Shown here: positions 4,962-64,000 of the stretch, one piece after another
How positions within the stretch are numbered: the stretch's first letter is position 1
Layout: each line of letters opens with the position of its first letter
Virus record (IMG/VR): IMGVR_UViG_3300021255_001366
Location: 1 to 64,000 of that record
DNA length: 64,000 nucleotides
Origin: a virus
Taxonomy: Duplodnaviria > Caudoviricetes
Direction: 5' to 3' (one strand)
Notes under the pieces: generated by a model
What the model saw: the letters and a program-made list of their open reading frames with translations, nothing else
What the model was told of the DNA's origin: nothing
Database searches by the model: none
Program-made: the position numbers and the translations under genes

Positions 4962-5195
4962 ATGTTAAAAGGATTATTTGAGGAAAAAACAGAAATCGAA
5001 TCTGCGTGTCATCTTGATGATGTTGAACTAACAATATATCAGGATGAGATAATAAAGCGTAATTTGGATGGCACTCCGATTGTCAGAGATATTAAATCAA
5101 AAGGTGTAAAATTACATGGCAGCAATGGTGAAACTAAAATTATTGTTAATATCACCGGAGATTTCAAAGTAGCAATTCAGATGGACGAAGAATAA
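4962..5195 (+). CDS. Hypothetical protein
   Basis: GGAG RBS before ATG 4962. Confidence 0.6.
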   Translation: MLKGLFEEKTEIESACHLDDVELTIYQDEIIKRNLDGTPIVRDIKSKGVKLHGSNGETKIIVNITGDFKVAIQMDEE

Positions 5196-5215
5196 AAGTA
5201 CAATTTGAAAGGAGA

Positions 5216-5425
5216 ATGATTATGGACGTAAAAAATTTATCATGGGAACAAATTAAGGAACTTGCAGAGATAGCTATGAAGAATGGGAGTGATTTTTCGC
5301 TAACGTTGTGCGCAGATGGAGATTGTAGTTTAGATATTTCAAAACATGATTATACAATAACACCAATAACTACAACACCAAGTATTACATGGGATAGTGG
5401 TATTAATAACGTGATTCCGTGCTAA
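5216..5425 (+). CDS. Hypothetical protein
   Basis: AAGGAG RBS. Confidence 0.6.
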   Translation: MIMDVKNLSWEQIKELAEIAMKNGSDFSLTLCADGDCSLDISKHDYTITPITTTPSITWDSGINNVIPC

Positions 5426-5455
5426 ATGAAAATGTAATTTTATAGGAGGAATAAA

Positions 5456-5752
5456 ATGGTCAAAGAAATTTGTGATAGTTTTAAATTTGAAAATCGTAAA
5501 GAACCAAACACAAGATATGTTACTTACAAATACAAGACTAATAATGAGAATGATAAAAGAGTGATGAAATTAATAGATGAGTTATTAAATAATGAACAAA
5601 AGAGATGTAATAACTGTATTCATTATCAATCGGATGGAACCTTTTGTGGATATGAATCTCATTCCTGTGATATTCACGGCAATATAGAAGGGTTCGATCA
5701 TCCTCATCATGATGGAGATGGCAGCAAGTGTGAAGATTATAAACGTAAATAA
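5456..5752 (+). CDS. Hypothetical Cys/His-rich protein
   Basis: AGGAGG RBS; CxxC. Confidence 0.65.
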   Translation: MVKEICDSFKFENRKEPNTRYVTYKYKTNNENDKRVMKLIDELLNNEQKRCNNCIHYQSDGTFCGYESHSCDIHGNIEGFDHPHHDGDGSKCEDYKRK

Positions 5753-5784
5753 TTATAAAGCAGACTTTTATAGGAGGTGTAACT

Positions 5785-6111
5785 GTGCGGTTTGAGATAT
5801 GGCAACTTCCGACTGCTAATAAAGCAAAATTCCTTCATTTTGATTGGCTGAAAGAAAAACCGTCTATTTATGACTATGTGATGGTTTATTCTGGAGAAAA
5901 AGAAAATCATCGTGTAGAAATAGAATCATACTTGGAAGATTTGTACGAGATATTCAACGTTAATCATCCTGAAGATTATCATGCCGCATCATTATCAGTA
6001 TCAGATTTGATTTGTTTAATTGATGAGGATAATAGACGTACTTGGTGGTATGTAGATGGTATTGGGTTCAAGAAAGTAAATGGGCTTATTGATGGGTGTG
6101 AGTATGGATAA
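5785..6111 (+). CDS. YodL-domain protein
   Basis: LEDLYEIFNVNHPEDYHAASLSVSDLI...YVDGIGFKK matches the YodL pattern. Confidence 0.8.
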   Translation: MRFEIWQLPTANKAKFLHFDWLKEKPSIYDYVMVYSGEKENHRVEIESYLEDLYEIFNVNHPEDYHAASLSVSDLICLIDEDNRRTWWYVDGIGFKKVNGLIDGCEYG

Positions 6112-6158
6112 ATTTATAGAGTATACGAGGTAAAACAAAGTATAATGGAGGGATTTTT

Positions 6159-6389
6159 ATGGCACAATTAGTTAAAAACAATAGCACTATTCCAATATTA
6201 AATGAGACATGGACGGTGACATTCTATGATCATCTACCGCTTGCATTTGAATCCAAACAAGATGTGGAAAAATATCTTAATGGCGAATTTTCAGAAGCTC
6301 ATGGTTACATGGAATATGAAAGAGTTCCTAATGGTGTAGAACATACTGTATATTATAATATTGAACATGATGATGAAAACAAAGTTTGA
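6159..6389 (+). CDS. Hypothetical protein
   Basis: GGAGG RBS. Confidence 0.6.
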   Translation: MAQLVKNNSTIPILNETWTVTFYDHLPLAFESKQDVEKYLNGEFSEAHGYMEYERVPNGVEHTVYYNIEHDDENKV

Positions 6390-6401
6390 TAGGAGAATAA
6401 T

Positions 6402-6671
6402 ATGGAAAAAGTAGAAGAAAGACAAATTAATTTAAAATTTCATCAGTTTTATTGTGATGAATGTGGAAAGTTTCTTGAAGAAGATTACGAAGATCACAAA
6501 GGACGATATAGAATTCCTGGTAGACTTGATTTAATTCATTTGAGCTATGGAGATCTTTTTGGAGAAAATCAAAATTATGAATATAAAGGTACATTTTGTA
6601 AGGATTGTAGGACTAAAAAGTATAAATGGCTAGGAGAACAATTAGTTAAATTGGGGTTTACTAAAGTTTAA
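6402..6671 (+). CDS. Zn-finger hypothetical protein
   Basis: CDECG...CKDC. Confidence 0.65.
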   Translation: MEKVEERQINLKFHQFYCDECGKFLEEDYEDHKGRYRIPGRLDLIHLSYGDLFGENQNYEYKGTFCKDCRTKKYKWLGEQLVKLGFTKV

Positions 6672-6831
6672 CTTGATGTTGCCGGAGATCAATTGGTATT
6701 TAAGTGCAGAATAAAAGAATAGTTTGATATGTAAACTAAAATGGTTTACAAAAAATGTTAAAGTAATATGTATTAGAGAAGTATGTGCAATAGACAAATA
6801 AATAATTGTTAAGTTTTCAAGTTTAGAAACA

Positions 6832-6860
6832 TTGATTTTTATCACTTCGTATGATAGTAT
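6832..6860 (+). promoter_or_regulatory. Sigma-A-type promoter for the repressor-like operon
   Basis: TTGATT-N17-TAGTAT with TGn extension. Confidence 0.55.
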
Positions 6861-6899
6861 AAGCTTACTAAAGTTGACATATTATCAAATTAAGCGGAG

Positions 6900-8108
6900 G
6901 TGGTAAAAATGTTAAAGGAACGAAAGCAACTAGATGATAGTATTAGAAAAATAATAAAGCAGCTGACTCGAAAAGAAACGGCTGACGTAACAGCTCGTTT
7001 AAAAGACGAGAAAGGTTTTCCGATCTCCTTGGCTTCCGATATATTCTGTTTACGGAAAGATCCATCTGAGTTATCGGCTTTTGAATTATTCTGCGTAACA
7101 AATATAGTTGTAAAAGAACGTATTAAAGAGTATTACAGTCCGGCTGAAATCAAGAGATATGAATCCGAGAAATACTTTGTTGATACAATGAAGTTTCCGT
7201 TAGAATTTGAAATGGTGCAGATTTCCAATGACCAATGGATAGGTAAATTCTCTGCAAAAGAATTAATGAAATTAAGAGAATACCAACTTATCAATTACAA
7301 CACAAACACTCAGAGAATTATGACTTATGTTATTCAGAATGAATCGGTCGATTATAAAATAACCATTAATTATAAAGCGGTTAAGGCAATTAAAGAGTTG
7401 TTAAAGGCTGGTGCGTTTATACCGAATACCATAACATTAAATATCAATGACGACCAGGATACTAACTGTAAATACGAAAATGGCAAACTAATAATCGACA
7501 AGATTGAAGCCTTTGACATCATAGATGGATTCCATCGTTATCTAGCCATGGGAGAACTTCACGATGAAGACAACAATTGGGATTATCCACTTGAGCTTCG
7601 AATAGTTGCATTCTCAGAGAACAAAGCAAAACAAATGATTTTCCAAGAGGATCAGCAAACTCCTATGTCTAAGACGGCATCAAAGAGTCTAAATCAGTAC
7701 AGTTATACTAACGTTATATGCGGAAGATTAAACGAAGATAGTTCGTGTAACCTATCCGGGCAGATTAATAACTACGGATATGTTGACTCAGCAGCCTTGG
7801 CTTCTGCGTTGTCAGTGTCAGACATTAAAGATAAAAAGGAGATGATCGGGTTATGTTCGGAACTTAAGAAGTATATCAATCAAGTAACGGAAGAAGATAC
7901 TTATTATCTTGATCATAAGTGGACAGAAGCCCAAATCTATGTGATGACATACGGATTCTATAAGAAAACAAAGCCTAGTATAATAGTAAAGGCAATGAAG
8001 AATATAGAAACCGCAGAAGAAAAAGCGCACAAAACTAGAATTATTGCAACAAAAAAACTTACAAAAGGTGTGCAAAATCATATAGAGGAGGTGTTGAGAA
8101 ATGTATAA
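6900..8108 (+). CDS. DGQHR/DndB-like (ParB superfamily) protein, similar in type to SPbeta YopQ
   Basis: NTQR, PNTITLN, IIDGFHRY motifs; directly upstream of an integrase-fold protein. Confidence 0.72.
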   Translation: MVKMLKERKQLDDSIRKIIKQLTRKETADVTARLKDEKGFPISLASDIFCLRKDPSELSAFELFCVTNIVVKERIKEYYSPAEIKRYESEKYFVDTMKFPLEFEMVQISNDQWIGKFSAKELMKLREYQLINYNTNTQRIMTYVIQNESVDYKITINYKAVKAIKELLKAGAFIPNTITLNINDDQDTNCKYENGKLIIDKIEAFDIIDGFHRYLAMGELHDEDNNWDYPLELRIVAFSENKAKQMIFQEDQQTPMSKTASKSLNQYSYTNVICGRLNEDSSCNLSGQINNYGYVDSAALASALSVSDIKDKKEMIGLCSELKKYINQVTEEDTYYLDHKWTEAQIYVMTYGFYKKTKPSIIVKAMKNIETAEEKAHKTRIIATKKLTKGVQNHIEEVLRNV

Positions 8109-33805: not shown

Positions 33806-35011
33806 GTGCTTATGAAATTACCAGTATTACCCTATGGTGAAGGCAGTATGTATATGAGAAATGATACAGTGTTGTATAAAAAAACAATAACACTGCCAAA
33901 TGGAAAAAAAGTTAGAAAGGTAATCTCTGGACAGAACCCAAAACAATGTTTAGAGAAAATGAAACAATTCGAAGAAGAAATTAAAAATTCTAAGACACCA
34001 TCAAGTCATATTGTATTAATAGATGGTATTATAAGTTGGCTTGAGAATACGCATAAGGACACCGTAAAGCCACAAACATACAGACGATTAGTCGGAACGG
34101 CGACTAACCAAATTGAGCCTTCTCCAATTGGACATATGCGATACCAAGAGATAACCGGAGATGAAATACAAAGTTTGCTCAATTATTTAAACCAAAAAGA
34201 ATATTCACATTCAACCATAAAAAAGACACATGATTTACTGAATTCTTTTTTTAGATACGTCTCAGAAAAAGACTCCTTTGATAATCCAATGCGTCTTGTT
34301 ACTATGCCGAAGATTAGCAATATCAAAGCGGAGTCCAAAGAAATTGCATGGCTTGAAGAAGACGAGATAGATCGCTTTGTTAAGGCGTGTGATACGCAGT
34401 TCAACAATGGATTGTTAAAATTCAAGTATGGTTACATACTCGCAGCAAATATCTATCTTGGTATGCGAGGAGGTGAATTACTTGCCTTAAAATGGAAGGA
34501 CATAGACCTCGAAAAGAATACCATATACGTATGTAAGACGTTGATTGAAGCCACCAATCCGGAGTATGATACAAACGATACGGCTGAAATGCGTAGACAG
34601 GGTATCAAGCGTACGTTGTTCTCAGTTCAAGAAAACACCAAGACATCTAAGAACCGCTACGTACCGATTAACTCCAAAGCAAGAGAGTTGTTAGTCAAAT
34701 ATCGTAATAATTGTCAATACACTGATCCAGAGGATTTTGTAATATCAACGAGTAATCGTAAAACGAACACGCTCAAGAATCTCTCAGACGCCATCAAGGC
34801 TATCGAGGCTGAAGCTGAAATAAATAAGCCTTGTAATACACATATCCTCCGCCATACATGTGCGAGTTTATACTTCAGAAAAGGAGTTCCAATAGAAGTC
34901 ATCTGTCAAATACTTGGAAATTCTAGAGAAGTGTGTGAAAAGACCTACGTACATTTTGTAGAAGAACAGTTGAAAGAAGCGGCCTCAAAGATTGATGTTA
35001 TCGAAATATAG
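33806..35011 (+). CDS. int: Tyrosine integrase
   Basis: GMRGGE, KT, HILRHT, LGNS..TYVH. Confidence 0.95.
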   Translation: MLMKLPVLPYGEGSMYMRNDTVLYKKTITLPNGKKVRKVISGQNPKQCLEKMKQFEEEIKNSKTPSSHIVLIDGIISWLENTHKDTVKPQTYRRLVGTATNQIEPSPIGHMRYQEITGDEIQSLLNYLNQKEYSHSTIKKTHDLLNSFFRYVSEKDSFDNPMRLVTMPKISNIKAESKEIAWLEEDEIDRFVKACDTQFNNGLLKFKYGYILAANIYLGMRGGELLALKWKDIDLEKNTIYVCKTLIEATNPEYDTNDTAEMRRQGIKRTLFSVQENTKTSKNRYVPINSKARELLVKYRNNCQYTDPEDFVISTSNRKTNTLKNLSDAIKAIEAEAEINKPCNTHILRHTCASLYFRKGVPIEVICQILGNSREVCEKTYVHFVEEQLKEAASKIDVIEI

Positions 35012-50224: not shown

Positions 50225-53200
50225 TTAAAATCTATTTTTCATTAGACTATTATGACCAGTTGCTTGACCAAATGTAATCTCTTGAATGAAACTACTAAAT
50301 TGACCATCTTTCTTCATAGCCTCCTTAAACTGCTCATAGTTCTTAACATTCGGGAGGTTAATAGAAATAGCGTTTTGGTTGTTAATGGTATTACCATTAC
50401 CATTACCGTGAGGTATGATAGACTGAATGTCTTTAGCCGTAGGAACATCTGTCTTGGAGAGTTCCCACAACCTTTGAGCCATTTCATTGGTAAATACCAT
50501 ATCGCCAGAACCAAGAGGTGTTAACATTGCTCCATCTCCCGTACGGTAGATAAGCTCTTGTCCTTTCTCCTGAGTCCATGCTAACTGGTCGTGAGGAATC
50601 TTCTTAGATCCCTTCGCAAACTTATTGTAATGGTACGGACTAAGGTCACGGATACCGTGGTATCTTCCTACCCAAGCACCGCTATAAATATAACCTTCTC
50701 GTCCCATTTGGTTAACGATGTTCTGCACCTTATCAGCGTCGAATCCTTTTTGTCTCAAGCGGTTAAAGCGGTCTTGTCCGGAACCCCACCCGTAATTGCC
50801 ATTCCATATAGCAAGAGCAACACCATAATAATCCTTTTCAGAACGCTTAGGTGTTTGAGCTGCCTTAGCGGCGGCTTGCTTCTTAGCTGCGGCTTGTTGC
50901 TTAGCCTTCTCTGCTTCAGCAGCTTTCTGTTTAGCGGCGGCCTCAGCCCTAGCTTTTGCTTCTTGCTCTGCTTTGATTTGTTGTGCTTTCTTAATCGCAG
51001 CCTGACGTTCAGCTTCAACTTGTGCCTTGCCAGCGTCCGTCATACTGTATACGTAAGCCTTGATTTGGTCTATAGATGCCTTAACGGCAGTAGAATTCGT
51101 GTCGAACTTATTCATGAAGTCGGATACGAGAGTAGATATCTTATTGCTATTCAAGATGTCATTCAAAGGCTTTGTAATAGTATACGCAACCTTATCGGTT
51201 TCAACCTTAATAGTATCCTTAATAATGGCGGTATTCTCATTAGCGTTATCAATCATGTCATGCATAAGAGCATCAACATCATCAAGTCTTGCCATGAGTA
51301 CCTCTTCATACTCTTGTCGCATCTTAGAGATGAGTTCCTTAGTCTCGGAAATCATCTTTTCCCATTCGGTCTCTTCAAGTTCTTCACGAGCTTCATTTAA
51401 GTTGTTCTGCGTCTGCTGAATTGTCTTACGTGCCTCTTCAGAGTCATCCCCAGCATAGGCATTAAGCATCTTCTCCATGGAATTGATATTCTTGACTTGT
51501 TGCTCGATGTTCTTCGAGTAGTCATACATGTCTTTCTCTCTGTCCATAACCTCTTGATATTTATCAATCAGTTTATCGAGGTTCGACAAGTGTTCTTGGA
51601 TTCCCTTCTCTACAAGGTCTTTAACGGCATCCTTCATCTGCTCTGCTGATTTAATTGCATTCTGCTGAGCATCAACGAGCTGTTCATACCTCTCAATTAA
51701 GGACTTATTTCCAGGATCTTTCGCAATTTCTTTTTCAAGTTTACGACGCTCCTCAGCGTAATCCAATGCTTGACGCATAGCGGTTTCATATTGTACCGCA
51801 AACAATCCATTGGTTGCTTGACCACGATTAGTCAACCGTCCATCGTCCTCATAGAGTTTGTCGTTAGACATTAAATCTACAAGGAATTGTGCTTCACTTG
51901 TAATACGTGAAATGCGGCCTTCAATCCAGTCAAAGATTTCCCAATCAAGATTTCTTATTTCGTTATTAAACTTAACGAGAGCAGTAGTAGATTCCTCGAT
52001 AGCTTTCTCAACAGAAAGAATCTCTTGGTTCATAGAATTCCAAGCCGATGACCCCTTCTCTATAGCCCCACTAGCAACTGCTTCGTCACGTTTCTTTATT
52101 AATTCTTGATACTCTTGTGTAAGGTATCCAAGTTCCTCGTTTTCGTACTTAATGAGTTCCTTGTAATAATCCTTACTTACAAAGTATCCATGTTCTTGCG
52201 TTCTACTAATGCGCTCATCTATGATGTCTGCATATGAAGTAGCATACGCAATTAACTCTTCAAATTCGGATTTGATATTGTCGAACTTTGTTTCTGCGAG
52301 TTCACCAAGTTTAATGGTTAATGTTTGAACTGCATCATAACATTCAACAGCCTTATTAAACCACTGCTGATACAGATTGATTTTTTCAACAAGTGGTTCA
52401 TTGTTTTTAATTGTTTCAATATCAATCAAACCATTCCGAACTTTATATGCATACTCTTCGGACAAACCTACAGAGTTAGCTTCTTGTAAATATCTTTCAT
52501 AACCTCGTCGTTGGATATCAATTTCTTCGCGTACTCGATCCATCTCAGAGATAAGACTCTTGTTGCGCTTTGACCACAGCGTATATGTGTTCTCGGCAAC
52601 CTCATTAAGCCTTGCTATTTCTTCCTCGATGCGCTGAATCTTAACCTCAATCCAATCGAATGTTTCTTTAGCTTCGTCGGCACTCTGATCATCGCGACCG
52701 CCACCTGAATTTCCAGAACCACCAGGACTAGGAACATTAAATCTATCTCTCCAAGAAGATGATCCAGCACGACCTCCGGTACCAGCACCGTGATATTGTG
52801 TTCCACTAGCAAATGAACCCATCAACTGACCACGAGAGTTAATCTTATGACTTGACAATAACTGCCTTGTCTGTTCAGCGTTAAAAATGATATCGCCTTT
52901 GACAACTGGAATTACTTCCGCACCATTAGAACCGATAGGGTAAACTTTCCCATCACGAACAAGTAACTCTTCGCCAAGCTCGCCTACGAGAGACATACCG
53001 CTTTGTTGAACGTTAGAATTACCATATGCACTACCAATCCAAGAACTACCATGTTGAGGATTAGCTTTCGTTCCATTTGTTGTTACACGAATATTAAACG
53101 GTTGATTATTAAGAGAGCTTTGAATGCTTTGACGCAAAGAAATTATAGCGCCTGGAGCAAGATTCAATTGAGTCTTTACAGTCGCATGTGTATTATTTAT

Positions 53201-56200
53201 TGCGGTAACTAAAACATTAACATCTTTTTTTGCTTGTGTGGTATCTGCTCCAACTTCGACATCACCATTCTTAACAAAATCATTAACATCAATACTGTCA
53301 GTTTTTTCTTTAATTGATGCAACTATTCCACCAGCAGAAGCAGTATCCCAATTAATACCACTCAAACCAAGAGTAGATTTGTTCTCAATGCCTTGAAGGT
53401 CTTTCATTAAAGCGCTAAGTTTTTCTTCTGCGGCATCAGCTTCAGAAGAATCAATCTTCATCTCTCGGTTATACTCTACTTCGTTATATGTTTCGATAAA
53501 TTCTTGAACTAGTGAAATATCTTCAGAAAGAGTACCCTCGACATCACTAGCGTCAACATCCATAATTGTTGGACGTTCAAGTTCTTGCTTCTGACGCAAT
53601 AACGCAGCCATAGCAGTAGATGCTTGTTGCCATTCTTCCGTATCCGGCGTTAATGTATCTCTATATTCAGATATCTGTTCAAAATCGCCAAGAAGAGTAT
53701 CAATATCTTTAGAATCAAAATGAATTTTAAAAGGAGCAGAGATTTTTTTAGACACTGCCTTTTGAATATCTTCAGCATACGACTCTGCTTCTGTAACTAA
53801 TTCATCTCTAGATTTTTCAGACAATCTTAGTTCAAAATCAATACCTTGATTAAGTCTACGTTCTGTAGCATACAACTCTTCTTCAAGACTGCTTACATCG
53901 TATCCGGCCGCCTTTAATTCTTCAATAGACTTCTTGTAATCGTCCATCTTCTGACGTGCATCAACACTTTCGTCAGATATAGCAGTTAATCCGTCAACAA
54001 TGCTGTCAGAGATATTGTCAAAGTCTATATCAAAATCCCAAGCATCACTAGTAGCAAGCAAGAGATCAGTAGCAGCAGATACGCTCAAGTCCATACGTTT
54101 AGCGAATTCATCAATATTTTTTACATTAATCGCATAAACACCTTCGGCATCTTTAGTAATCATACCTTCGGTTTTTTCGACGGCATCATCTAAGAAATTA
54201 TAGATACCAGATATGTCTTCAGTAAAATATCTTTGACCACGCTCAATATATTCTTCGACCTTGTCAGCCCAATTCTCATCATAAACATCACTACCAAATT
54301 CCATGATGTCTGGATTGAATCCATAACCACCAAGATACTCCATGCCCTTGCGGAATTCATCTGTACCAGTCCAACCGGACTCAAATGACTTCTTAAGGTT
54401 TTCTACAGCAGAAGCAGCAGTATTAAAGTTATCAGACAAGTTGGGAGTCTCTGTTGCCTTAACGTATTCGTTAAGAGCAGACATCGTAGCACGGATTTGT
54501 GCCTCAAGCATATCATAACCATTGATTTCATCAGCTAATGCTTGTGATTTATCAAGGCTTGCTATCAATTCAGAACGCTCTGCATCTGTTAAATCCTTAG
54601 TAACATTAACATAATCACGAAGAGTTTGCTTACCTTGTGCACGAGCATTTTTGAGACGCTGAGTTTTACTGGTAAGTCTGTCTATGGTTTTGATTTCTTC
54701 GTTGTATTCTTTGACAGCAACAGCTTCTTTAAGTTCTGCACTAACAAGTGTCGCTTCGGCTACTTGCTCTGTATACTTCTGCATTGCTTCAGTATTGAGC
54801 ATAACTCCGTTGTCAGTAAACGTATATAATGATTCTTGTAAATCACCATAGGTTTGATTTAACTTTTGAAGTGTTTCATCTGTTAAATAACCCTGGTCTT
54901 TCTGTTCAGAAAGAGCAGTAGTAAGAGACTCGAACATAGCAGTGTTAAACGAGAGTTTTCCACGAGCCGAATTGTATGCTAAATCATCAATAAACGAATT
55001 CCACGCAGCAGTACCCTTCTTGAGAAGTTCTTCATCAATCTCTCCATTGTTAAGAGCGGCCACCCAAAGGTCGTAGCGATCGTCAGATAGGGTATTAATG
55101 AATCGCTCATACTCTTGTCTTAGTTTGCGTCCGTTATAATCCGCAGTCTGATTTCGCCTATCTGTTGTTACAGAGTCATCTAAAGTCCACGCATTTAATG
55201 CCTTATCTCTGCTTGTCATGAAGCCATCAACTTGAGCAAGTTCCATTAGTTTATCAATTGGAACATTCGGAAGAAGTTTTTGCAATATCTCTAATTGCTC
55301 ATTAATATCCGCTACACGATCAGCATAACTTACACCTTTCGCATTTTGAACTCTATTAATCTCATTTAAAATGTCTACGACTTGATCAGTATCTTGTTTA
55401 GATAATTGTTCGAATTGTTCGTTGATATCTTTAATTGCTTGACTTTGTTTTCCAACTGCGCCAAGTTCATCAGGTAATGCTCCATAATCATAGGTATCAA
55501 GCATTCTCTTATATAATTCTTGCTCTTTACCAGACAAAGAATTATAAAACTCATTTGCTTCTGTGGCATAAAACCGAGACATATACGTTCCAGCTTCTTG
55601 ATTAAAATTATGAAGCTGAGTAGTGTGCATTGTTAAATTTGTTCTAAATTCAGTCTCAACTTGCTTGAGTTCTTTTTCTAACCATGCTGATTGCTCCGCA
55701 GTAAGATGTTCATAATCAACACTGCCGTATATATTTTCAAGATGCCCGGTTAATTTTGATATATCTAGGAATTTGTACGAATCACCGCTTTCATCAAGTC
55801 GCCCAGATCGAATATCGGAAATAACCTTATTCAAGCTATCCATCTTTTCTTGGTATTCGTCAACCTTATCTTGAGCATCTTCGACATTAAGCATTGCTCC
55901 AGAGAATAAATCTTCAAATTGACTTGCAAATTCTGCATTGGCAATATCTTGACTCTTTTGAAGTAATTCGTCTAACGACCCAACAATAGTTCCAACAGTA
56001 CCATTAAGGTTAAGAAGCGCATTGCCATTTTCATCATATCCGTTTGTTAATTCAGGGAATATTTCTGCAAGCTGATTACTGATGTTTAAGAATTCAGCGT
56101 ACTCATCATTTGACAAAGTACCTTGGTTTTGTTGTGATGTACCAAGATTATTAACTTCTTGTGCAAGCTCAGCATAACGTTGTTTTACATTGTTTACCGT

Positions 56201-56695
56201 ATCAGAGTTTTGCTTCATAGAAGAATCAACATCATCAACAGCATCTTTGGCTTTTTTGTAATTCTCCCGGATGTATTTCTCAGGATGAAAAGCCTTATCT
56301 AATTGATCAAATAGAAAACCTACTCCAAATGTTACAGCAGCAGAAATTCCTCCAGCTATTAGACTGGTACCAATGTTCGTAATTAATCCAGTAAAGAAAT
56401 CCTTAAACTTAACGCCCATTTGACCAAGAACAGTATAGTTCTTTTGCATAGTCTTAACCATGGAAGCACCGTCGCCAATAGCATTGTTTAACTTAAGTTG
56501 GTCTTTTGCGGCGCCAATAATACGAGCATCAACGTTGTCGTACGCTTTTGCCATTTCGTCCAAGTCGGCGTCTTCAGCAACATCCTCTTCCTTCAACATC
56601 TTCAAGAAATCAGCATTGCCTTTTTCTTGTAATAATCCCTCAAAATATTTCTTAGATTTAAATATAGGCGTTTTATTCTCTGTATTTCCAAACAG
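50225..56695 (-). CDS. Tape measure protein, exon 3 (with CW_7-like repeat)
   Basis: No RBS at the ORF-track start; GELGEE/E.G.E motifs; joins exon 2 in frame after splicing. Confidence 0.88.
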   Translation of the reverse strand: MFGNTENKTPIFKSKKYFEGLLQEKGNADFLKMLKEEDVAEDADLDEMAKAYDNVDARIIGAAKDQLKLNNAIGDGASMVKTMQKNYTVLGQMGVKFKDFFTGLITNIGTSLIAGGISAAVTFGVGFLFDQLDKAFHPEKYIRENYKKAKDAVDDVDSSMKQNSDTVNNVKQRYAELAQEVNNLGTSQQNQGTLSNDEYAEFLNISNQLAEIFPELTNGYDENGNALLNLNGTVGTIVGSLDELLQKSQDIANAEFASQFEDLFSGAMLNVEDAQDKVDEYQEKMDSLNKVISDIRSGRLDESGDSYKFLDISKLTGHLENIYGSVDYEHLTAEQSAWLEKELKQVETEFRTNLTMHTTQLHNFNQEAGTYMSRFYATEANEFYNSLSGKEQELYKRMLDTYDYGALPDELGAVGKQSQAIKDINEQFEQLSKQDTDQVVDILNEINRVQNAKGVSYADRVADINEQLEILQKLLPNVPIDKLMELAQVDGFMTSRDKALNAWTLDDSVTTDRRNQTADYNGRKLRQEYERFINTLSDDRYDLWVAALNNGEIDEELLKKGTAAWNSFIDDLAYNSARGKLSFNTAMFESLTTALSEQKDQGYLTDETLQKLNQTYGDLQESLYTFTDNGVMLNTEAMQKYTEQVAEATLVSAELKEAVAVKEYNEEIKTIDRLTSKTQRLKNARAQGKQTLRDYVNVTKDLTDAERSELIASLDKSQALADEINGYDMLEAQIRATMSALNEYVKATETPNLSDNFNTAASAVENLKKSFESGWTGTDEFRKGMEYLGGYGFNPDIMEFGSDVYDENWADKVEEYIERGQRYFTEDISGIYNFLDDAVEKTEGMITKDAEGVYAINVKNIDEFAKRMDLSVSAATDLLLATSDAWDFDIDFDNISDSIVDGLTAISDESVDARQKMDDYKKSIEELKAAGYDVSSLEEELYATERRLNQGIDFELRLSEKSRDELVTEAESYAEDIQKAVSKKISAPFKIHFDSKDIDTLLGDFEQISEYRDTLTPDTEEWQQASTAMAALLRQKQELERPTIMDVDASDVEGTLSEDISLVQEFIETYNEVEYNREMKIDSSEADAAEEKLSALMKDLQGIENKSTLGLSGINWDTASAGGIVASIKEKTDSIDVNDFVKNGDVEVGADTTQAKKDVNVLVTAINNTHATVKTQLNLAPGAIISLRQSIQSSLNNQPFNIRVTTNGTKANPQHGSSWIGSAYGNSNVQQSGMSLVGELGEELLVRDGKVYPIGSNGAEVIPVVKGDIIFNAEQTRQLLSSHKINSRGQLMGSFASGTQYHGAGTGGRAGSSSWRDRFNVPSPGGSGNSGGGRDDQSADEAKETFDWIEVKIQRIEEEIARLNEVAENTYTLWSKRNKSLISEMDRVREEIDIQRRGYERYLQEANSVGLSEEYAYKVRNGLIDIETIKNNEPLVEKINLYQQWFNKAVECYDAVQTLTIKLGELAETKFDNIKSEFEELIAYATSYADIIDERISRTQEHGYFVSKDYYKELIKYENEELGYLTQEYQELIKKRDEAVASGAIEKGSSAWNSMNQEILSVEKAIEESTTALVKFNNEIRNLDWEIFDWIEGRISRITSEAQFLVDLMSNDKLYEDDGRLTNRGQATNGLFAVQYETAMRQALDYAEERRKLEKEIAKDPGNKSLIERYEQLVDAQQNAIKSAEQMKDAVKDLVEKGIQEHLSNLDKLIDKYQEVMDREKDMYDYSKNIEQQVKNINSMEKMLNAYAGDDSEEARKTIQQTQNNLNEAREELEETEWEKMISETKELISKMRQEYEEVLMARLDDVDALMHDMIDNANENTAIIKDTIKVETDKVAYTITKPLNDILNSNKISTLVSDFMNKFDTNSTAVKASIDQIKAYVYSMTDAGKAQVEAERQAAIKKAQQIKAEQEAKARAEAAAKQKAAEAEKAKQQAAAKKQAAAKAAQTPKRSEKDYYGVALAIWNGNYGWGSGQDRFNRLRQKGFDADKVQNIVNQMGREGYIYSGAWVGRYHGIRDLSPYHYNKFAKGSKKIPHDQLAWTQEKGQELIYRTGDGAMLTPLGSGDMVFTNEMAQRLWELSKTDVPTAKDIQSIIPHGNGNGNTINNQNAISINLPNVKNYEQFKEAMKKDGQFSSFIQEITFGQATGHNSLMKNRF

Positions 56696-56704
56696 CAAAA
56701 CTAA

Positions 56705-56733
56705 TTGAATATATGTCTATATGGTGTTAATAT
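56705..56733 (+). promoter_or_regulatory. Sigma-A promoter of the intron cargo gene
   Basis: TTGAAT-N17-TAATAT, TGn; AGGAGG at 56741. Confidence 0.7.
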
Positions 56734-56752
56734 TATATTAAGGAGGTGGATT

Positions 56753-57262
56753 ATGATGGAAGATAACGCAATAGTAGTATACTGCGATATGTGTAGGAAA
56801 AAAGAAACTAGTAACAATTTACACATTAAACGTATTGTCGCATTCAGAGAATACGACGATTTTAATGGCACATGTCCACGATGTGGTAATCAAAACTGTA
56901 AAATACTTCACTTGACACAGAGCGAGATTTCACCAATTTATGTTCATGCTGAGTGTGCGGGGCAAGACGAAGAGTATTTGATTAACAAAGTTTTCGAATT
57001 CGATGAACTCAAAAGAAATAATCCTGAGGAATTCGATAAGCTATGGCAACCATTAGAAGAATTTAGAATCAAAGAACTAGAACGCAGAAAAAATTCAAGA
57101 AGTAAAAATGATTCTAATTCGCCCAAATGCCCCACATGTGGAAGTACCAACGTCAAAAAAATCTCCGGAGGTAAGCGTTGGCTTGGAGTTGGATTATTTG
57201 GTCTTGCATCATCTAATATTGGCAAAACATATGAGTGTAAGAATTGCCAATACAAGTGGTAA
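56753..57262 (+). CDS. Double Zn-ribbon protein encoded antisense inside intron 2
   Basis: CDMC/CPRC and CPTC/CKNC pairs; Gly-rich hydrophobic segment; no HNH, GIY-YIG or LAGLIDADG motif. Confidence 0.82.
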   Translation: MMEDNAIVVYCDMCRKKETSNNLHIKRIVAFREYDDFNGTCPRCGNQNCKILHLTQSEISPIYVHAECAGQDEEYLINKVFEFDELKRNNPEEFDKLWQPLEEFRIKELERRKNSRSKNDSNSPKCPTCGSTNVKKISGGKRWLGVGLFGLASSNIGKTYECKNCQYKW

Positions 57263-57330
57263 TACTTGACATCCACATCAGAAAGTACTACGATACAGAT
57301 GCCATACAATACGCCAAATCGCGTATTTGA

Positions 57331-57356
57331 GGAGGCGGGAGACCGTCTCCTTTTTT
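57331..57356 (+). terminator. Rho-independent terminator of the cargo gene
   Basis: GGAGGCGG-GAGA-CCGTCTCC-TTTTTT. Confidence 0.85.
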
Positions 57357-57787
57357 GACTTTTTATAGGATTCTCAGTCCTATTGTTTCGACTCTACCTT
57401 CATGCCTTTCGACACGCCCACTTGGGAGCCTGTGGGGGCGATTCTTGATAACTTGCCAAATCTGTCTTACTAACATCGAATTTTGATATTAATGTGTCAG
57501 ATTTGTCTAGTTATTAGACCATCTCCCTGCTGATTGAGTTATTGGGTAGTTTGCTTGCGCAAGTGAGAACCAATAACCTTTCCAGTCCTTGTAGGAGTCT
57601 CACGAACATCCTAGGGTCGGTAGTCACACCGATCCATATCAGTGGTACGAGAGGGACGAATGAAATATGTCCCATAAAAGTCTCGTTTGATTTTACTTGT
57701 ACACCCTACACCTTGCGGTGGTCTTTGTGTTTTACCTACGGTTGGTTAGCCGTAGCACGGGCGTGTACCTGAGCCTATTTGGATATA

Positions 57788-58358
57788 ACCCAGCTTTGAA
57801 AATTTGTTTGATAATACAAAAGTTCCGATTCCGGCAATTAGTGTTTTTAATGTGCCGAAAGAAGATATAAGGTCATTAACAATGCCTAAGATATTATTGC
57901 CAGTATCTATGAGTCCTTTTAAAAATCCAGAGTCTAATACTCCGGTAGCAAGTTCCTCTAGCGAAGCTTTGAGTCTATTTGTTGAATATTCAAGACCTTG
58001 TTCGAAATTGGCTTGTTCGCGCATTGCACTACCAGCAGAATTCTCTGCGGTGTTATATGCAGCTTCAAGAGTCTCGATATTATCAAGCACGGCGTAAAGA
58101 GCGTTTGCATTTCTTTTACCAGCTAATGCTTCTCCAAGAGATGCACGTTCAATGTCATCAAGATTCTTCCATTCTTTACCAATACCTATAAGGATATCAT
58201 AGATTGACTTAAATGTTTTCTGATCCGCTTCTAATATATCGAACCCGGTTAAACTCTTAACCAATCCCTGAAGTTTAGAAGTTGTTTCTGTAAACTCGTC
58301 AGTCTCTTCTCCGAGGTCTTCTAATTCTGTTGATGCACCACGTATGCGAGCACTTAAT
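57788..58358 (-). CDS. Tape measure protein, exon 2
   Basis: LSARIRGAS..TSKLQ..LAGKR core TMP motifs; in frame with both neighbours after splicing. Confidence 0.9.
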
Positions 58359-58965
58359 CGTTTGTATTAACATTGTTCGCAACACAATGCTTTTATTATA
58401 TTAATTATATGTGATTAATTAAAAAACGTTCCATATTGTCATACTCCCAATACGGAACGCAAAAAGGTATTCTTTCTCAGGAGTATGCTGAGTAGAATAC
58501 TCTTTGTCGTATTTTTTCATAATAATATAATAAAACTCATAGTTTCCCATGAGACTAGACTATTTCTTCATCCTCTCTACAAAATAGAGTAGGAGTATAC
58601 CTTTTCGATTTAAGGGGATTTCACCCACGCCATTTGCGATTGCGCCCTACGATTATTGTTATGGATATTCAGGATTTCCACCCTTATTCTCTTGTCCATA
58701 ACTCGACGTGAATCTAGTCGTTGAACCTTTACCCTCGACTCAAGCACCGGATGGTCTCCGGAATACGTTAGGGTACTTGGCTGCAAGAACTACCATTTGC
58801 CTTCGCCAGTACTTAGGTTTTTGACCATATACCATCCTTACGTTGTTTCTACTTTCGTACCATCATAGCGTGATTTCTCCGCTATTGTGGTGTAAGGCTT
58901 TAGGTTTTACCTGCAATTAAATATATTCCATATGCACATTACTGTACATAAAGACATAAAAGTTT
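58359..58965 (-). mobile_element. Group I intron 1 (607 nt, IA-like, ORF-less)
   Basis: P AAUUGCAGG, Q CUUGCAGC, R GUUCAACGACUA, S AAGAAAUAGUCU, P9 GAAA hairpin; removal restores GTVFKT-LSARIRG. Confidence 0.92.
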
Positions 58966-61900
58966 GTCTTGAAAACAGTTCCTACTTGTTCAGGATTTTG
59001 TACAACAGTGTTGGCGGCTGTGACGAGCGCTACAGATTCCTCAAGTGAAGTGTTTGCAGCATTTAAAGAAGCAGCTGAACGCTGTAATGCCTCACCAATT
59101 CCAGCACTATCAATTGCATAATTATTCGCAACTTCATTGAATACGTCTACAATATGCTCTGCTTGATCTGCTTGCATTTGATAACCTTGAAGCGTTGAAA
59201 TCAAACTTTCGTTTGCAGTTCCAATATCAATACCGTCTCCAACATTTTTATACAAAAGTGCAACACGAGCCAGCTCTTTAGCATCAGGAACAGAATACCC
59301 AAGTCTAGACCAATCTGCTGTTGCGCTTATTGTGTCAGAAATAGTAGCACCAAGATCCTTTGCGGTATTTGCATAAGCTTCAAAATCATTTTGTATTTGA
59401 CTAAGAGTTTGCCCTGATACCTTGGATAATTCGACCATCTGTTTGTTGATATCTGCAACATATGTATACCCTTGGCGTACAACTCTAATAACATCATAAA
59501 AACTATTAAATGTAGTAAGAGTCGCAATCATGGACTTTGCACGTTGCTTAATCATGTTGAATACAGACGATCCAGTCTGACCAGCTTTATATGCATTTGA
59601 CTGGATAGTTTGAATCTGGAGGATAATCCCATCCAATTCCTCTCTTGTTAAAGTCGCACTACTACGCAGCTTCTCAGAGATTTCGTCAAACTGAGTTCCA
59701 TATGTACTTTCTGCGGCTGAGTTTTGTCTACGCCATTTTTGAAGATCCTTTTCTATACGAAGCTGTTCCTTGTAGCGTTTATCTTCAGCAGCTTCTAGTT
59801 TTTTCTGGTCATTAACGTTCTTTTGATTGTTTTTAGCGACAATTTTGCCCAGCTCATTTTGTGCACGTTCATTTTCTTTTATTACATCAGTAGACTTTTC
59901 ATACTCGACATTAAGCTGACGCATAGATTGTAATTGTTCTTCGTACATTTTTGCACGACTAACAGCATCTCGTTCTAATTCTTGTTCTCCAGATAACTGA
60001 TACTTCTTCACTTCAATCATTGCGTTATTGTATTGCTTTAAAGTATCAACATATTTTTTCAATGCTTGCTTGTCTTGTTTTTCTGAAGAATCAGATTGCG
60101 CCAATCCACCATTTGATTTATCAAGCTTACGTGCCTCAATAACGGCTATTTCTTGCAAATTCTTTTTGCGCATCTCTAATAATGTATTAACTTGCGCCTC
60201 TGCGTTTGCATTTTCATCTATAGCCTTGAGTTCTTTTGTTTTTTCTTGATATACAGCTAAAGCAGTTTTCTTTTGTGCTTCTAGTTCTGTTATTTCAGCA
60301 GTATTTTTTACAGGATCTAGTTTCGCAATTTGCTTTCGAATATTAAGAACATCTTGGTATGCCGTCTTTTGCTCAGATAACAGATTATTAACATTAGATA
60401 CTTGAAGACCTTCCTCTGCTTTCTTCTTTGCTTCAGAATTCTGCCTCATTTGCTTATACAGATTCTGACGTTCTTTCTCAATTCTTAATTTTTCTCTTTC
60501 AGCCGCAAGGTCGGTTGATTTATAATCATCAGATTCAGCTACGCTTGTGTAGGCAACCCCGCCCTTTTTATCATATTTGATATTTAATCGTTGTGTTTGT
60601 TTTACTAATTTTCCACTCGAATCTTCAACCATGCGCTCTGCTTTAATTAACGCTTGAGCTAAATCATCGTGAGAATCATAGAATCTTTCAATACTAGCAA
60701 TATATCCATCAACTTCATATGAACTTATTTCTGCTATAATAGCATTTTCTATTTCTCTTGTTCGTATTTTGGCTTGTTCCGGATCATACTTGTCATCATA
60801 CGGGACTTTAGTTTTGCTTTGTTTTTTCTTTGCTGATTCAACCTTAGAAGATTGCATATCAGAAACAATGTTGTTCAATGGAGTTTTAAGGTCTTTGTAC
60901 CAATTTCCATATTCTCCATTATTCAACTTTGTTGCTTCTTCTTGTACTTCTTTAGCAGTAAGAGTTCCAGCGTTTACCAGTTCACGAACGGCATCCTCAA
61001 CTTCACCTTTATGCTTTTTAATACCTTTCGCATAACCCTCGCCCCACATTTCTCCAAGCGCCTCGGCTACCCTAGAAGGAGAGCGTGAGTCTTGTGCTTC
61101 GGCAGTACCTTCGTTTGCTGCATTAGCTAAATCAGCACCAGCTTGTTTGGCATTTGGTTGTTCGGATTCCATTCCTTCGACATATGATTTTCCTTGCTTT
61201 TTACCGTTAGATGAATCTGGAGTTTCATTGGATATTTGAGGAAGGTCAGGAAGTTCAACTTTATATTTATTAAATAATTCCTTTATATAACTTTCAACTG
61301 TATCCTGTATGTTGTTAAAAGCTTTAACAAAATCATCATCATCTAAACTACCTATTTCTCCTCTGACATTAGTCATTGCTTGCTTAATAAAGTCTTCTTC
61401 AGAGATTTGTTTATCCAAAGCTTCGCGAATAGTATAATCCATTGCTTCAGCAACAGCATCATAATACTTTCCTGTTATTTCAAAATACTGGCGTTCTGCA
61501 TCTGATGACATAGAAAACGGTGAAAAATTTGAACTGTCTACTTCAGAACCAATAAGTTTAGAGTAAGAATCGGCAAGAAATGTTGAAAGATAGTGTGCGG
61601 ATTGACTTTTCATCATCATTGAATTATGATTTAAGCCATAACTACCAGTTGACCTTATCATAAACTTCTCGAACTTTAAAACAGAAGAAACTTGTTCATA
61701 AGTAGAATCAATATGTTCTTTTAAAAACAATAATATTTTTTTAAACTCTTCAATTTTATTATTGATTGCTTCATCATTATTAACATTTAATTCTCTAAAT
61801 TTACCAAAATCATTCAGTATTTTAATAAGATTATCAATATTATTTTGCTCATTTTTAAGAGTATCAATTATATTAGTGTCAACTTTACCACCTTTAGACG

Positions 61901-64000
61901 TAACAATTGATTGAACCAAGCCATTTGAAAGACTATTATATAAATCAGATAATGGAATAGGAATTTCTCCATTTTCATTTTCTAATTCGAGACCAGCAAT
62001 ATGCGAAATATTTACAAGGGACTTTACTACACTAGCAATAAGACTGTTTTTTACATTAGACAAATCTATATTCAAAGTTTTGCCTTGCCACATTAGTTCG
62101 AACTGCTTACCTATTCCTTGAGACAAAAATTTATCAAACCACGTTAAATAATCATCTTCTGATAAAGTACCACCTAAAGGTGAAATAGAAGAGTGCTTAT
62201 GAAATATTTTTGCGGCATTAGTTGTATTCATTTCATCAGGTAAATTCATCCTATCTAATTTACCTATAAATGAATCTATGACTTTTCCAGTTTCATCAAA
62301 AATAGCAAAACGTTCTTCTAATGAATTATCATTTTTAACTTTCTTTATAAATTCTTCATAAGATAAGCCTATATCAGAAATAACTCTTTTAGTTCCTTGA
62401 CCTAACTCTTCATATTTATCTTGAGTTTCTTTTATTTCTGATTGTAAACGGTCTTGTTGTTCTTCGATTCCCGATGAAAGATTATTTTTATTACTAAACG
62501 GTTGTTCAACTTCCTTTAAATTTGCCTTATAATTCTCAAGCGTTTCCTTGAATAAAGCCGTAGCCTTTTGTACTCCAAGACGTTTCTTCTCAACGCCTTC
62601 CATAACGTTGTCAAAAATCTTTTGGAGTTCGCCGTCGGAAACTTCTCCGAAATCAATAAGCCCCTTATCTTTTTCCACCTTAATGGCATCAAGGATTTTC
62701 TCTCGTTTTGATTTAACATTTTGATTATTGGCTTGAGCAGAGGTATTCTCGTTTACTTTTTTTGTTTCTTCTTCGACCTTTGCTATATCTTCTTGCTTAA
62801 CAACTGGGGTGTTTGCGTTGTCTTGTTTAGCTTTCTTGTTTGCATCAACAGCAGAAGTAAGCCGCTCATACTCGGCTTGTAAACGTTGTTGTAATTTTGT
62901 ATTATCTGTTAAATCAGTTATAGACCGAGAACCACCCTGTTCTTTATATTCACTATATTGCTTAATTATATTAGCAAGGTTGCCCTTACCTTTGCTCGTA
63001 CGTTGATCAAAACTATTCTTGTCAACAAACGAAAGCATTTTATTAAAAGATTTTTCTAAATCTTTTGTATTCTCTTGTATGCCGTCGGTAACACCTTCCG
63101 AAATACTCTTGCCAACATCTTTTGACGCTTCCTTAATTGGTTCACTTGCTTGTTTTACTATATCACCCATAGAAACAACACCATTTTGAAGCTCTTGTTT
63201 TGCTTCTTCCATGGATTGTTTTACGGCTGGAGCAATACGCTCAAACTCCTCATTAATTTTCTTTATAATGACCTTTTTCCATCCAGGACTCTCGTTAGAC
63301 GCATTAGTCTGATCAAAGATAGTCTTAAGAATACTTGTTTCTCCAGTATTCATATATGCTTTGCTTAATTCTAAAATATTGTTCGCAAATCTAGCAGACG
63401 ATTCATTAATAATCGAACCATCTTTTTTTGTCTTAATCTTCGATTTATCAACAAGTGATCCTGTAATATTTTTTAAAAAATTTTTTTCGCTTGCATCAAC
63501 TTTTTCAGGGATAAAGTTAAAGTATTGTTCTGCTTTTTTTAACTCTGCATTAAGTTCAGCGACATGATCTTTTTGTTTTCTCGTTTTAGACGCTATTTGT
63601 TCTGCTGGTTTAGATGCGTCTTTAGCACCTTGTATTAAGTTTTTATAGGCATCATATTCGCTTTTAATCTCATCTGCGTTTTTACTAGATTGAATAAAAT
63701 TCTTCTTTTGTTCGTTGTATATTAATCCGTTTGCATTTAATGTTTCTTCTAATTCTTTCTTACGAATCTCAGATTCTTCTTTTAAAACCTTAACGGTTTC
63801 ATCATTGCTTTTAATATACTCTTTTTGATATTTTGAGATTAATTTAATGGTTTCAAGATATTCGTTTTTAAGTTTTTGAATAGCAGTAATATTATTATTT
63901 ACTTCTTGTGTATTATCTTCTAATGCAACAGTATCATTTTTAATATCACTCTGTGCGTTATTACTTTCAGAAGAAATAGAAGTAGTTGTTTTCGGTTTAT
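58966..64000 (-). CDS. Tape measure protein, exon 1 (5' end outside the window)
   Basis: Frame read codon by codon from 63353 to 64000 with no stop; TP901-type core ATADWSRLGY..DVFNEVANNYA. Confidence 0.9.

Follow-up and report, generated by a model that had tools for sequence, protein, structure and literature searches.

The window analysed here is a stretch of 64,000 nucleotides of viral DNA (Duplodnaviria; Caudoviricetes) and represents the first 64 kb of the IMG/VR virus record IMGVR_UViG_3300021255_001366, a genome of 123,919 bp with direct terminal repeats. The virion genes lie on the minus strand from about 35 kb of the window onward, and the tape-measure gene is broken there into three open reading frames (ORFs) in the ORF listing: ORF 1 (63353..58917, 1,478 codons as listed), ORF 2 (approximately 58264..57746, 172 codons), and the long ORF 3 (56698..50225), all on the minus strand. 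The frame of the first piece is open to the window edge if open ends are allowed, and the tape-measure protein is therefore longer than the listed 1,478-codon ORF. According to Pfam, the first piece ends with a PhageMin_Tail domain, and the last has a CW_7 repeat close to its C terminus. Our subject is the interruption between the second and the third piece, at 56696..57787 on the minus strand. Judged from its sequence, we are highly confident that this segment of 1,092 nt is a functional or recently functional group I intron of an IA-like type, which can be divided into a predicted ribozyme (57787-57365), a cargo region (57364-56697) with a zinc-ribbon gene on the opposite strand, and the omega-G (56696).

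The exons on both sides and the predicted junction between them agree with this assignment. Exon 2 (57788..58351, minus strand, about 188 codons, ending ...SKLG) has an approximate 5′ edge, as this edge is the 3′ splice site of another intron in the same gene, intron 1, and its tblastn matches are annotated tape-measure proteins of the phages Sundance, Tsamsa, WRP3, and others. It ends with ...AAG CUG GGU at 57788, and exon 3 (50225..56695, minus strand, 2,156 codons) begins at 56695 with CUG UUU GGA and shares the frame of the long ORF, so that removal of the intron joins KLG|LFGNTE in frame. This is what a preliminary description of the DNA had claimed, and P1, P10, the omega-G, and the junction were all found at the boundaries proposed there. 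The frame that runs from exon 2 into the intron reaches a stop after 13 codons, and in four relatives (L003, L004, L008, and L110; L numbers are our labels for loci) the intron starts with UAA; a survey of the Bacillus cereus group likewise describes phage group I introns in which the reading frame is closed shortly behind the 5′ splice site (PMC2504315). Exon 3 has neither a Shine-Dalgarno sequence nor a credible start of its own, the only candidate being a TTG that overlaps the omega-G, and its separate translation, named in the preliminary description as an outcome that would speak against splicing, is thus not supported. In Brevibacillus phage Sundance and Bacillus phage Tsamsa, the tape-measure ORFs are unbroken, and the proteins align across both junctions.

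The predicted guide sequence at the start of the intron (57769..57793, minus strand, together with the exon end) connects both splice sites. The exon end CUGGGU (57793-57788) pairs with the guide GCUCAG (57774-57769) to form P1, which is paired in all eight aligned sequences and has the U-G pair at the splice site in all eight; one P1 position has changed on both sides, from G-C to A-U, and L037 combines the exon end CUGAAU with the guide GUUCAG. Directly 5′ of the P1 guide, the strand UCCAAAUAG (57783-57775) pairs over 9 bp, including one G-U, with CUGUUUGGA (56695-56687), and thus the first 9 nt of exon 3 are the P10 target. A P10 of 6-10 bp adjoins the P1 guide in every mapped member, and the sequences differ between the lineages while the pairing is kept, as in L004 (AUUAAGUAG/CUAUUUAAU), L008 (AAUUUACAA/UUGUAAAUU), and L005 (UGUGCAAG/CUUGCACA). 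As our search for 3′ splice sites demanded a terminal G, the presence of the omega-G is partly given by construction, whereas a junction in frame was no condition of the search. The codon phase at the end of exon 2 is a different one in L008 (phase 1, GGG U|UU GUA), and the predicted junction still restores the ORF, which fits RNA splicing and not separate genes. We consider this behavior of the splice sites to be stronger evidence than any covariation count. No RNA data set containing the stretch was found, and two metatranscriptome runs of the source sample contained nothing over 56200-58500, which has no bearing on expression, and an intron-less allele was not seen in the DNA runs.

The structure of the ribozyme was derived from a MAFFT alignment of eight sequences, on which P3, P4/5, and P7, named in the preliminary description but not located there, were mapped. 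Relatives of the ribozyme part had been collected by blastn and an nhmmer profile, which gave about a dozen distinct IMG/VR contigs, and further, diverged members (L091, L095, L096, L097, and L099) came from a gapped motif search; in all relatives found, the ribozyme RNA follows a homologue of exon 2. A blastn search with 56300-58400 against GenBank phages gave no match. The helices follow each other in the order P1, P10 guide, P2 three-way junction, P2.1, P3, P4/5, P6, P7, P7.1, P7.2, P3 3′ strand, P8, J8/7 with the P7 3′ strand, and P9, which is the pseudoknot topology of group I introns with the two extra hairpins of subgroup IA, and the junction sequences are R- and S-like. In the 77 pairs of 13 helices, 87.7% of the cells are paired, compared with 32-46% when the partners are slid by 1-3 columns, a contrast that is inflated, as the structure was built from the same sequences. 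Both sides have changed in 43 of these pairs, the covariation score of 0.504 was reached by none of 500 shuffles (0.226 in shuffles), and compensatory changes across the eight sequences back P1, P10, P2, P3, P4/5, P6, P7.1, P7.2, P8, and P9. The fold of the ribozyme part is also far more stable than that of shuffled sequences (z = −3.85).

All helices lie on the minus strand. The P2 three-way junction (57699..57768) consists of GUACAC.CC/GGGUGUAC, GUG-CUACGG/CCGUAG-GUAAAA-CAC, and CACC-GCAA-GGUG; it carries the near-invariant motif UAAAACACAAAGA, and most of its pairs have changed on both sides. P2.1 (57648..57685) is a variable hairpin that the alignment lacks for L003 and the L091 group. The 5′ half of the core (57584..57645) contains the P3 5′ strand CCACU (57645-57641), J3/4 (GAUAU), the covarying hairpins P4/5 (57635-57615) and P6 (57613-57592), J6/7 (CAA), and the P7 5′ strand GGACU (57588-57584). 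The compensatory changes in P3 result in three forms, CCACU/AGUGG, UCGCU/AGCGA, and CCUCU/AGAGG. P7.1 (57578-57537) covaries, as does P7.2, in which GGGAGAU (57527-57521) pairs with AUCGCCC (57442-57436) around an invariant A.G mismatch and encloses a variable hairpin. The 3′ half of the core (57365..57422) begins with the P3 3′ strand AGUGG (57422-57418), followed by the covarying P8 with its GAAA loop (CGUGUC-GAAA-GGCAUG, 57416-57401), J8/7 (AAGGUAG), the P7 3′ strand AGUCG (57393-57389), and the P9 hairpin with a UGAGA loop (57383-57365). The P7 5′ strand lies in the invariant CAAGGACUGGAA, J8/7 and the P7 3′ strand form GAAGGUAGAGUC, and the pairing is GGACU/AGUCx; J8/7, as GAAGGUAG-AGUC, resembles the consensus GAAGAUAU-AGUC from the Rfam alignment of intron 1. 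Two candidates were abandoned. GAGACUC (57600-57594) as the P7 5′ strand left no room for P4-P6, and as L091 and L097 lack the motif, it was placed in the loop of the covarying P6 hairpin; the pattern GCCCCCASAGGCTCYCAAG gave one chance match in the high-GC phage L083 and was dropped. From these features, the intron is very probably of the IA type with P7.1 and P7.2; IA2 features have been described (PMC4227781).

On the opposite strand, the cargo region contains a complete predicted expression unit that reads away from the 3′ splice site, as the preliminary description had recognized. A promoter-like site and a ribosome binding site (56705..56746, plus strand) are found within the last 50 nt of the intron: TTGAAT at 56705-56710, a 17-nt spacer, TG-n-TAATAT at 56725-56733 with an extended −10 TG, and AAGGAGG at 56740-56746. 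The promoter thus has the sequence and spacing first described, and similarly placed promoter-like sites with an extended −10 TG occur in L008, L005, and L037. The cargo gene itself (56753..57262, plus strand) starts with ATG at 56753, has its stop at 57260-57262, and encodes 169 amino acids. It is followed by an intrinsic terminator that was called by the scan for such signals (57329..57362, plus strand), in which a hairpin with a 10-pair stem including six G-C pairs (57329-57352) precedes TTTTTTGACTTT and which abuts P9. Read on the minus strand, no U tract follows the hairpin, as in the first description. Seen from the other strand, the T tract of this terminator is the AAAAAG that is conserved behind P9 in the ribozyme alignment, and an equivalent hairpin with a T tract is present in L003 and L004.

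The cargo protein begins with a CxxC...CxxC zinc ribbon and continues with a helical hairpin; the zinc ribbon at its C terminus is very conserved and has the signature PKCPTCGSTNVKKISGGKRW.GVGLFGLASSNIGKT.EC.NC.YKW. The two zinc ribbons that had been suggested for the protein are seen in the alignment as well as in the AlphaFold2 model (predicted local distance difference test 84.8; the Gly-rich hydrophobic insert of the C-terminal zinc ribbon is the least confident part). This Gly-rich hydrophobic loop (142-156) may touch a membrane or a partner. The gene is present as a single copy in the phage genome. Full-length homologues have 36-46% identity, and a profile search yielded 3,723 clusters (at 50% identity) with E≤1e-3; it is a large, unnamed family with two zinc ribbons. 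In 80 aligned sequences, only the initiator Met, five Cys, one Pro, one Ser, and one Gly are invariant, three more positions are at least 90% conserved, one of them the sixth Cys, and no Asp, Glu, His, or Lys is conserved. Pfam gave only weak zinc-ribbon matches below the cut-offs and no nuclease or transposase family, and no family or fold match to HNH, GIY-YIG, LAGLIDADG, His-Cys, PD-(D/E)xK, EDxHD, or other nucleases was found. A structure search, which the preliminary description had suggested, recovered zinc ribbons, albeit only generic ones that indicate no function and include no nuclease fold (Foldseek against PDB, with no match at E≤0.001, and against BFVD). PHROGs and the ESM Atlas offered nothing beyond "zinc ribbon" or "hypothetical protein", and no defense-system model of PADLOC matches the protein, for which the role in exclusion or defense considered in the preliminary description is hypothetical. 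As conserved catalytic residues are absent, the cargo is probably not a nuclease, and it is very unlikely to be one of the known homing endonucleases, in agreement with the first description. We infer that it is a non-enzymatic protein that binds nucleic acid or protein and serves the phage or the element.

The cargo was compared in related phages in view of the idea, put forward in the preliminary description, that the intron is a neutral slot for accessory genes. When the cargo protein or exon 2 was scanned singly against IMG/VR, no relative came up, and an alignment of cargo homologues was needed, which retrieved 80 viral loci. Introns at the same site have lengths of 946, 949, 1082, 1092, 1095, 3404, 5353, 5574, 5766, and 6086 nt. 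In the short members nearest to that of the window (L003, L004, L008, and L110; 946-1,095 nt), one antisense cassette exactly fills the gap between P9 and the 3′ splice site. In the large members (L005 with 3,404 nt, L006 with 5,353 nt, L033 with 5,574 nt, L037 with 5,766 nt, and L040 with 6,086 nt), the predicted 3′ splice site is in frame with a long exon-3 ORF in each case, and the extra genes lie on both strands with their own ribosome binding sites, the cargo overall ranging from 0.5 to about 5.6 kb. Among these passengers are a protein with a GmrSD_N domain (PADLOC NsnA model, 1.4e-31), two PemK/MazF-like proteins (Pfam PemK_toxin), an AbiQ-like protein (L040 7929-8489, minus strand; PADLOC, 7e-21), a DUF4145 protein (Pfam, under the curated cut-off), a DUF3800 protein (Pfam), and a protein with KilAC and Bro-N (Pfam); the passengers that match the NsnA and AbiQ models are those of L005 and L040. 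AbiQ toxins are normally paired with a repeat RNA antitoxin. None of 10 scanned cargo proteins of the relatives matched a transposase family. The diverged L097 intron contains a sense-strand gene with its own promoter-like site, and in contig X3 from another gut sample, the ribozyme and the conserved C-terminal zinc-ribbon segment are kept while the other cargo is replaced. This exchange and the varied cargo of the relatives match the prediction of a slot. The swapped cargo expected from the first description was therefore found, and the same ribozyme at the same site with varied passengers, several of them defense- or toxin-like, agrees with a slot. The first description's wording that the intron carries this gene "instead" of a homing endonuclease has to be qualified, as the zinc-ribbon gene is constant in the completely mapped members and perhaps tied to the element. 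Two further candidates were discarded, a 10-bp P10 that would give a 4,169-nt intron in L098/L090, after which there is no open frame, and a 384-nt "cargo-less" intron in L095-L099, which has a stop codon at the junction and does not resume the tape-measure frame there.

The same position of the tape-measure gene is also interrupted by other RNAs. In other phages, the same exon-2 end (...KNLG/KNVG) precedes at least four further structured RNAs that are conserved but unclassified, namely those of the groups L078/L073/L076/L016/L042/L024, L021/L039/L041/L056, L030/L011/L018/L007/L080, and L062/L060/L001. The L062/L001 type has canonical-looking Q (AAUCCGCAGC) and R (GUUCAGAGAGC) elements, and Rfam finds none of the four groups. 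In L001 (MT837120.1, positions 5049-7667), a GenBank "Bacteriophage sp." from human feces, the tape-measure ORF stops at the same ...QLG site and is followed by a sense gene with a strong TTGACA/TATAAT promoter and by antisense genes that include a zinc-ribbon gene; the contig ends before exon 3. A RAGATH-18 RNA (71.9 bits; L024 7700-7773, minus strand) is found inside the tape-measure interruption of a zinc-ribbon-bearing phage, and a near-threshold match to drum RNA (40.5 bits, cut-off 43; L062 5805-5910, minus strand) inside another. The tape-measure site thus looks like a hotspot for several intron lineages, and either the arrangement is old and the RNAs have diverged past recognition, or the zinc-ribbon gene is functionally tied to the site.

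The reading that we favor, and that we think likely from the sequence comparisons, is that of a self-splicing IA-type intron at a conserved tape-measure site, in which the DNA from P9 to the 3′ splice site serves as a cargo bay. In this model, the first approximately 420 nt would fold as a ribozyme (P1-P9), whose guide would pair with the last 6 nt of exon 2 (P1, with the U-G pair) and the first 9 nt of exon 3 (P10). With this pairing, the ribozyme could reach a 3′ splice site at a distance of 0.65 kb, or of up to 5.6 kb in relatives. Insertions would be tolerated in the segment from P9 to this site, and as inserted DNA would be spliced out of the tape-measure mRNA, the segment could be a bay for genes with their own promoters, ribosome binding sites, and terminators. 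In the window, the bay would hold only the constant passenger, the antisense zinc-ribbon gene, whose terminator would halt the transcript just before the core. The model supposes that the intron splices in vivo and that the cargo is transcribed from its own promoter, apart from late transcription.

Several points weigh against this model. Splicing and cargo expression are deduced here from sequence data, and we know of no bacterial example of splicing for introns that are 5-6 kb long and have genes on both strands. The cargo promoter matches 8 of 12 consensus positions, which is under the scan threshold, and as it lies in an A+T-rich stretch, it has to be regarded as weak. Besides the inflated pairing contrast mentioned above, P7 is invariant, and covariation is thus uninformative on this helix. 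Two covarying hairpins lie where a P4-P6 domain is expected, but P4/5 has no internal J4/5 loop, which is unusual among group I introns, and together with a P6 that has a conserved 12-nt loop, this makes the P4-P6 domain compact and atypical. The search with Rfam group I models that the preliminary description had proposed gave no support, as RF00028 did not match this intron in 56500-59200 even at E≤10, and there was no Rfam group I match in L001 and none near the cargo in 20 related loci. The "full ribozyme core" of the first description therefore rests on covariation and not on a library match: P1, P10, and the GAAA loop of P8 are in place, and P3 and P8 covary, whereas P7 lacks such support.

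The main rival reading is that the zinc-ribbon protein is a factor of the element itself. The gene is present in every completely mapped intron member and lies antisense inside the tape-measure genes of dozens of phages, and it may for this reason be tied to the element and be no free passenger. In its wider form, this reading regards the introns as "container introns", an undescribed class found where gut Clostridia phages encode their tape-measure protein. They would store conflict genes, i.e., defense, toxin-antitoxin, and anti-repressor genes, which would be independently expressed as well as protected and co-inherited in an essential late gene; the zinc-ribbon factor could exclude superinfecting relatives via the tape-measure protein or DNA entry, or it could spread the intron to intron-less alleles while not being a nuclease of a classical kind. 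We regard this wider form as possible, albeit unlikely. More doubtful is the narrower idea of a mobility or maintenance factor, perhaps a homing protein of a new kind. It could be a subunit that binds DNA and brings in a nuclease of the host or the phage, or else a nuclease whose active site is unrecognized. This narrower idea is favored by the retention of the gene whatever the other cargo, by its position in the small members, where homing endonuclease genes often sit, by the fact that zinc ribbons commonly bind nucleic acids, and by the genomic contexts, as 55 of 81 viral loci with the gene have tape-measure homology on the opposite strand, including loci whose RNA is not recognizably related; the same was seen at 24 of 79 bacterial-genome loci, always on the opposite strand. 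However, the family comprises thousands of clusters, and the remaining 26 viral and 55 genome loci showed no tape-measure homology in their flanks. The lack of conserved Asp, Glu, His, or Lys and of any nuclease match also argues against a mobility factor, as does the diverged L097, in which the DNA next to the ribozyme has other cargo.

We consider it improbable that splicing is controlled by the zinc-ribbon protein, as a maturase-like RNA-binding cofactor that helps to bring the distant 3′ splice site to the core, or by the antisense RNA, which would pair with the 3′ part of the intron and block or time the production of the tape-measure protein. An antisense transcript complementary to 57352-56735 of the pre-mRNA would end just short of the core, and some group I intron proteins are maturases, which is established for LAGLIDADG proteins, but the zinc-ribbon family is widespread outside of introns, the gene is far from both the core and the splice site in the relatives of 5-6 kb, and the long P10 of the small members should suffice alone. 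Finally, a gene without any intron, in which separate polypeptides supply the tape-measure function and the gap is an intergenic island with another structured RNA, would be compatible with the absent Rfam group I match and with the orphan Rfam motifs (Fusobacteriales-1, drum, and RAGATH-18) in equivalent gaps of other phages, but is highly improbable in view of an exon 3 without ribosome binding site or start, of covarying P1 and P10 helices that flank an exact in-frame junction, of the L008 phase shift that only splicing compensates, of the group I pseudoknot helix order with R- and S-like junctions, and of the continuous homologous proteins in Sundance and Tsamsa.

As for the host, the genome-encoded homologues of the cargo protein are from gut and rumen Clostridia (Ruminococcus, Lachnospiraceae, Butyrivibrio, Eubacterium, and Coprococcus), and the DNA of the window occurs in animal-gut metagenomes. 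The ribozyme is present in Eubacterium ruminantium ATCC 17233 as the 1,095-nt intron L110, whose flanks are close to the tape-measure gene of the window, in a contig of 420 kb from Coprococcus ammoniilyticus H1_22, and in a Lachnospiraceae metagenome-assembled genome. The phage is most likely a large siphophage of gut Clostridia with Lachnospiraceae-type hosts. Its genome contains three genes for tyrosine recombinases (Phage_integrase; 34349-34954, plus strand; 72649-73182, minus strand; 119577-120014, plus strand), and no serine recombinase was found in it. With these recombinases and the relative in the 420-kb Coprococcus contig, a temperate life is possible, and from the gene content we consider it plausible. 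The expression of the cargo in lysogeny that the preliminary description proposed is hypothetical.

The tape-measure gene has a further intron, intron 1 (58975..58352, minus strand), which gives the sole RF00028 match in the whole genome (54 bits, 58975..58536). As this match ends at 58536 and the frame resumes only near 58351 (LSARIRG...), a 3′ tail of about 185 nt was assigned to intron 1. The provisional junction of exons 1 and 2 leaves a gap of six residues in the alignment with Sundance, and the boundaries need refining. The orphan Rfam motif Fusobacteriales-1 has a weak match in this tail (58337-58433, minus strand, 26 bits, E=1) and a strong one (75.7 bits) in a related phage, where it likewise lies within the interrupted part of the tape-measure gene (L007 8301-8428, minus strand), and it may be a peripheral part of such introns.

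To our knowledge, phage group I introns are textbook selfish elements with homing endonucleases as their only passengers. In the introns described here, the ribozyme and the splice sites are constant, and unrelated genes, each with expression signals of its own, fill the DNA in front of the 3′ splice site. If these introns splice, an essential virion gene would be a safe harbor for accessory genes, which would be silent in the late mRNA and lost only through precise deletion, and a new kind of hotspot would have to be added to the map of phage accessory and defense islands. Gene callers and Rfam-based intron searches would miss such elements, as the tape-measure protein split into three ORFs exemplifies, and the zinc-ribbon family with its thousands of clusters would gain a first genomic context. 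As two cultured strains, E. ruminantium ATCC 17233 and C. ammoniilyticus H1_22, carry members, the claims are directly testable.

The host gene and the kind of ribozyme are not new, as the group I introns TMP-IVS1, IVS2, and IVS3 of IA1/IA2 type have been described earlier in prophages of the Bacillus cereus group, where they also interrupt the tape-measure gene (Tourasse and Kolsto 2008, PMC2504315). Like the intron of the window, they belong to subclass IA, lie in frame in phage tape-measure genes, and have an early stop after the 5′ splice site, and different TMP-IVS introns adapt to one site through P1 and P10 (PMC2504315), as the relatives of the window's intron do. However, they are ORF-less or contain a GIY-YIG or HNH homing endonuclease gene or its remains, and none was reported with an antisense, self-promoted non-nuclease gene or multi-gene cargo (PMC2504315). 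The closest known architecture is that of the IStrons (CdISt1 and BcISt1), which likewise have a 5′ IA2-type ribozyme with P7.1/P7.2 and foreign DNA before the 3′ splice site, and which do no harm to the gene they are inserted in because they are spliced out (Tourasse et al. 2014, PMC4227781). The 3′ segment of IStrons is an insertion sequence with transposase genes that move the whole element (PMC4227781). In contrast, no transposase was found in the element of the window, which has one homologous site in one gene and accessory genes as passengers. In the nrdD (sunY) intron of phage T4, which is of the IA type, the I-TevII ORF follows the catalytic core in the 3′ (P9) region and has its own expression signals. 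This ORF is on the sense strand and encodes a homing endonuclease, whereas the cargo of the window is antisense and not nuclease-like. A protein gene opposite to the ribozyme strand is also known from nuclear group I introns in ribosomal DNA (L2066), but these are eukaryotic, encode a His-Cys homing endonuclease, and need spliceosomal introns and polyadenylation for its expression (PMC9548176). The larger relatives resemble the giant mitochondrial ND5-717 intron of corals and mushroom corals, which is also of group I and has many genes inside it that do not encode endonucleases; unlike the introns described here, it is organellar, encloses ordinary mitochondrial genes, and is processed unconventionally by back-splicing (PMC6545197). 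In the full-text literature, which was incompletely covered, we found no description of a phage group I intron with self-promoted non-nuclease, defense, or toxin genes. Compared with all these systems, the new part is thus the non-nuclease antisense cargo, which varies between relatives.

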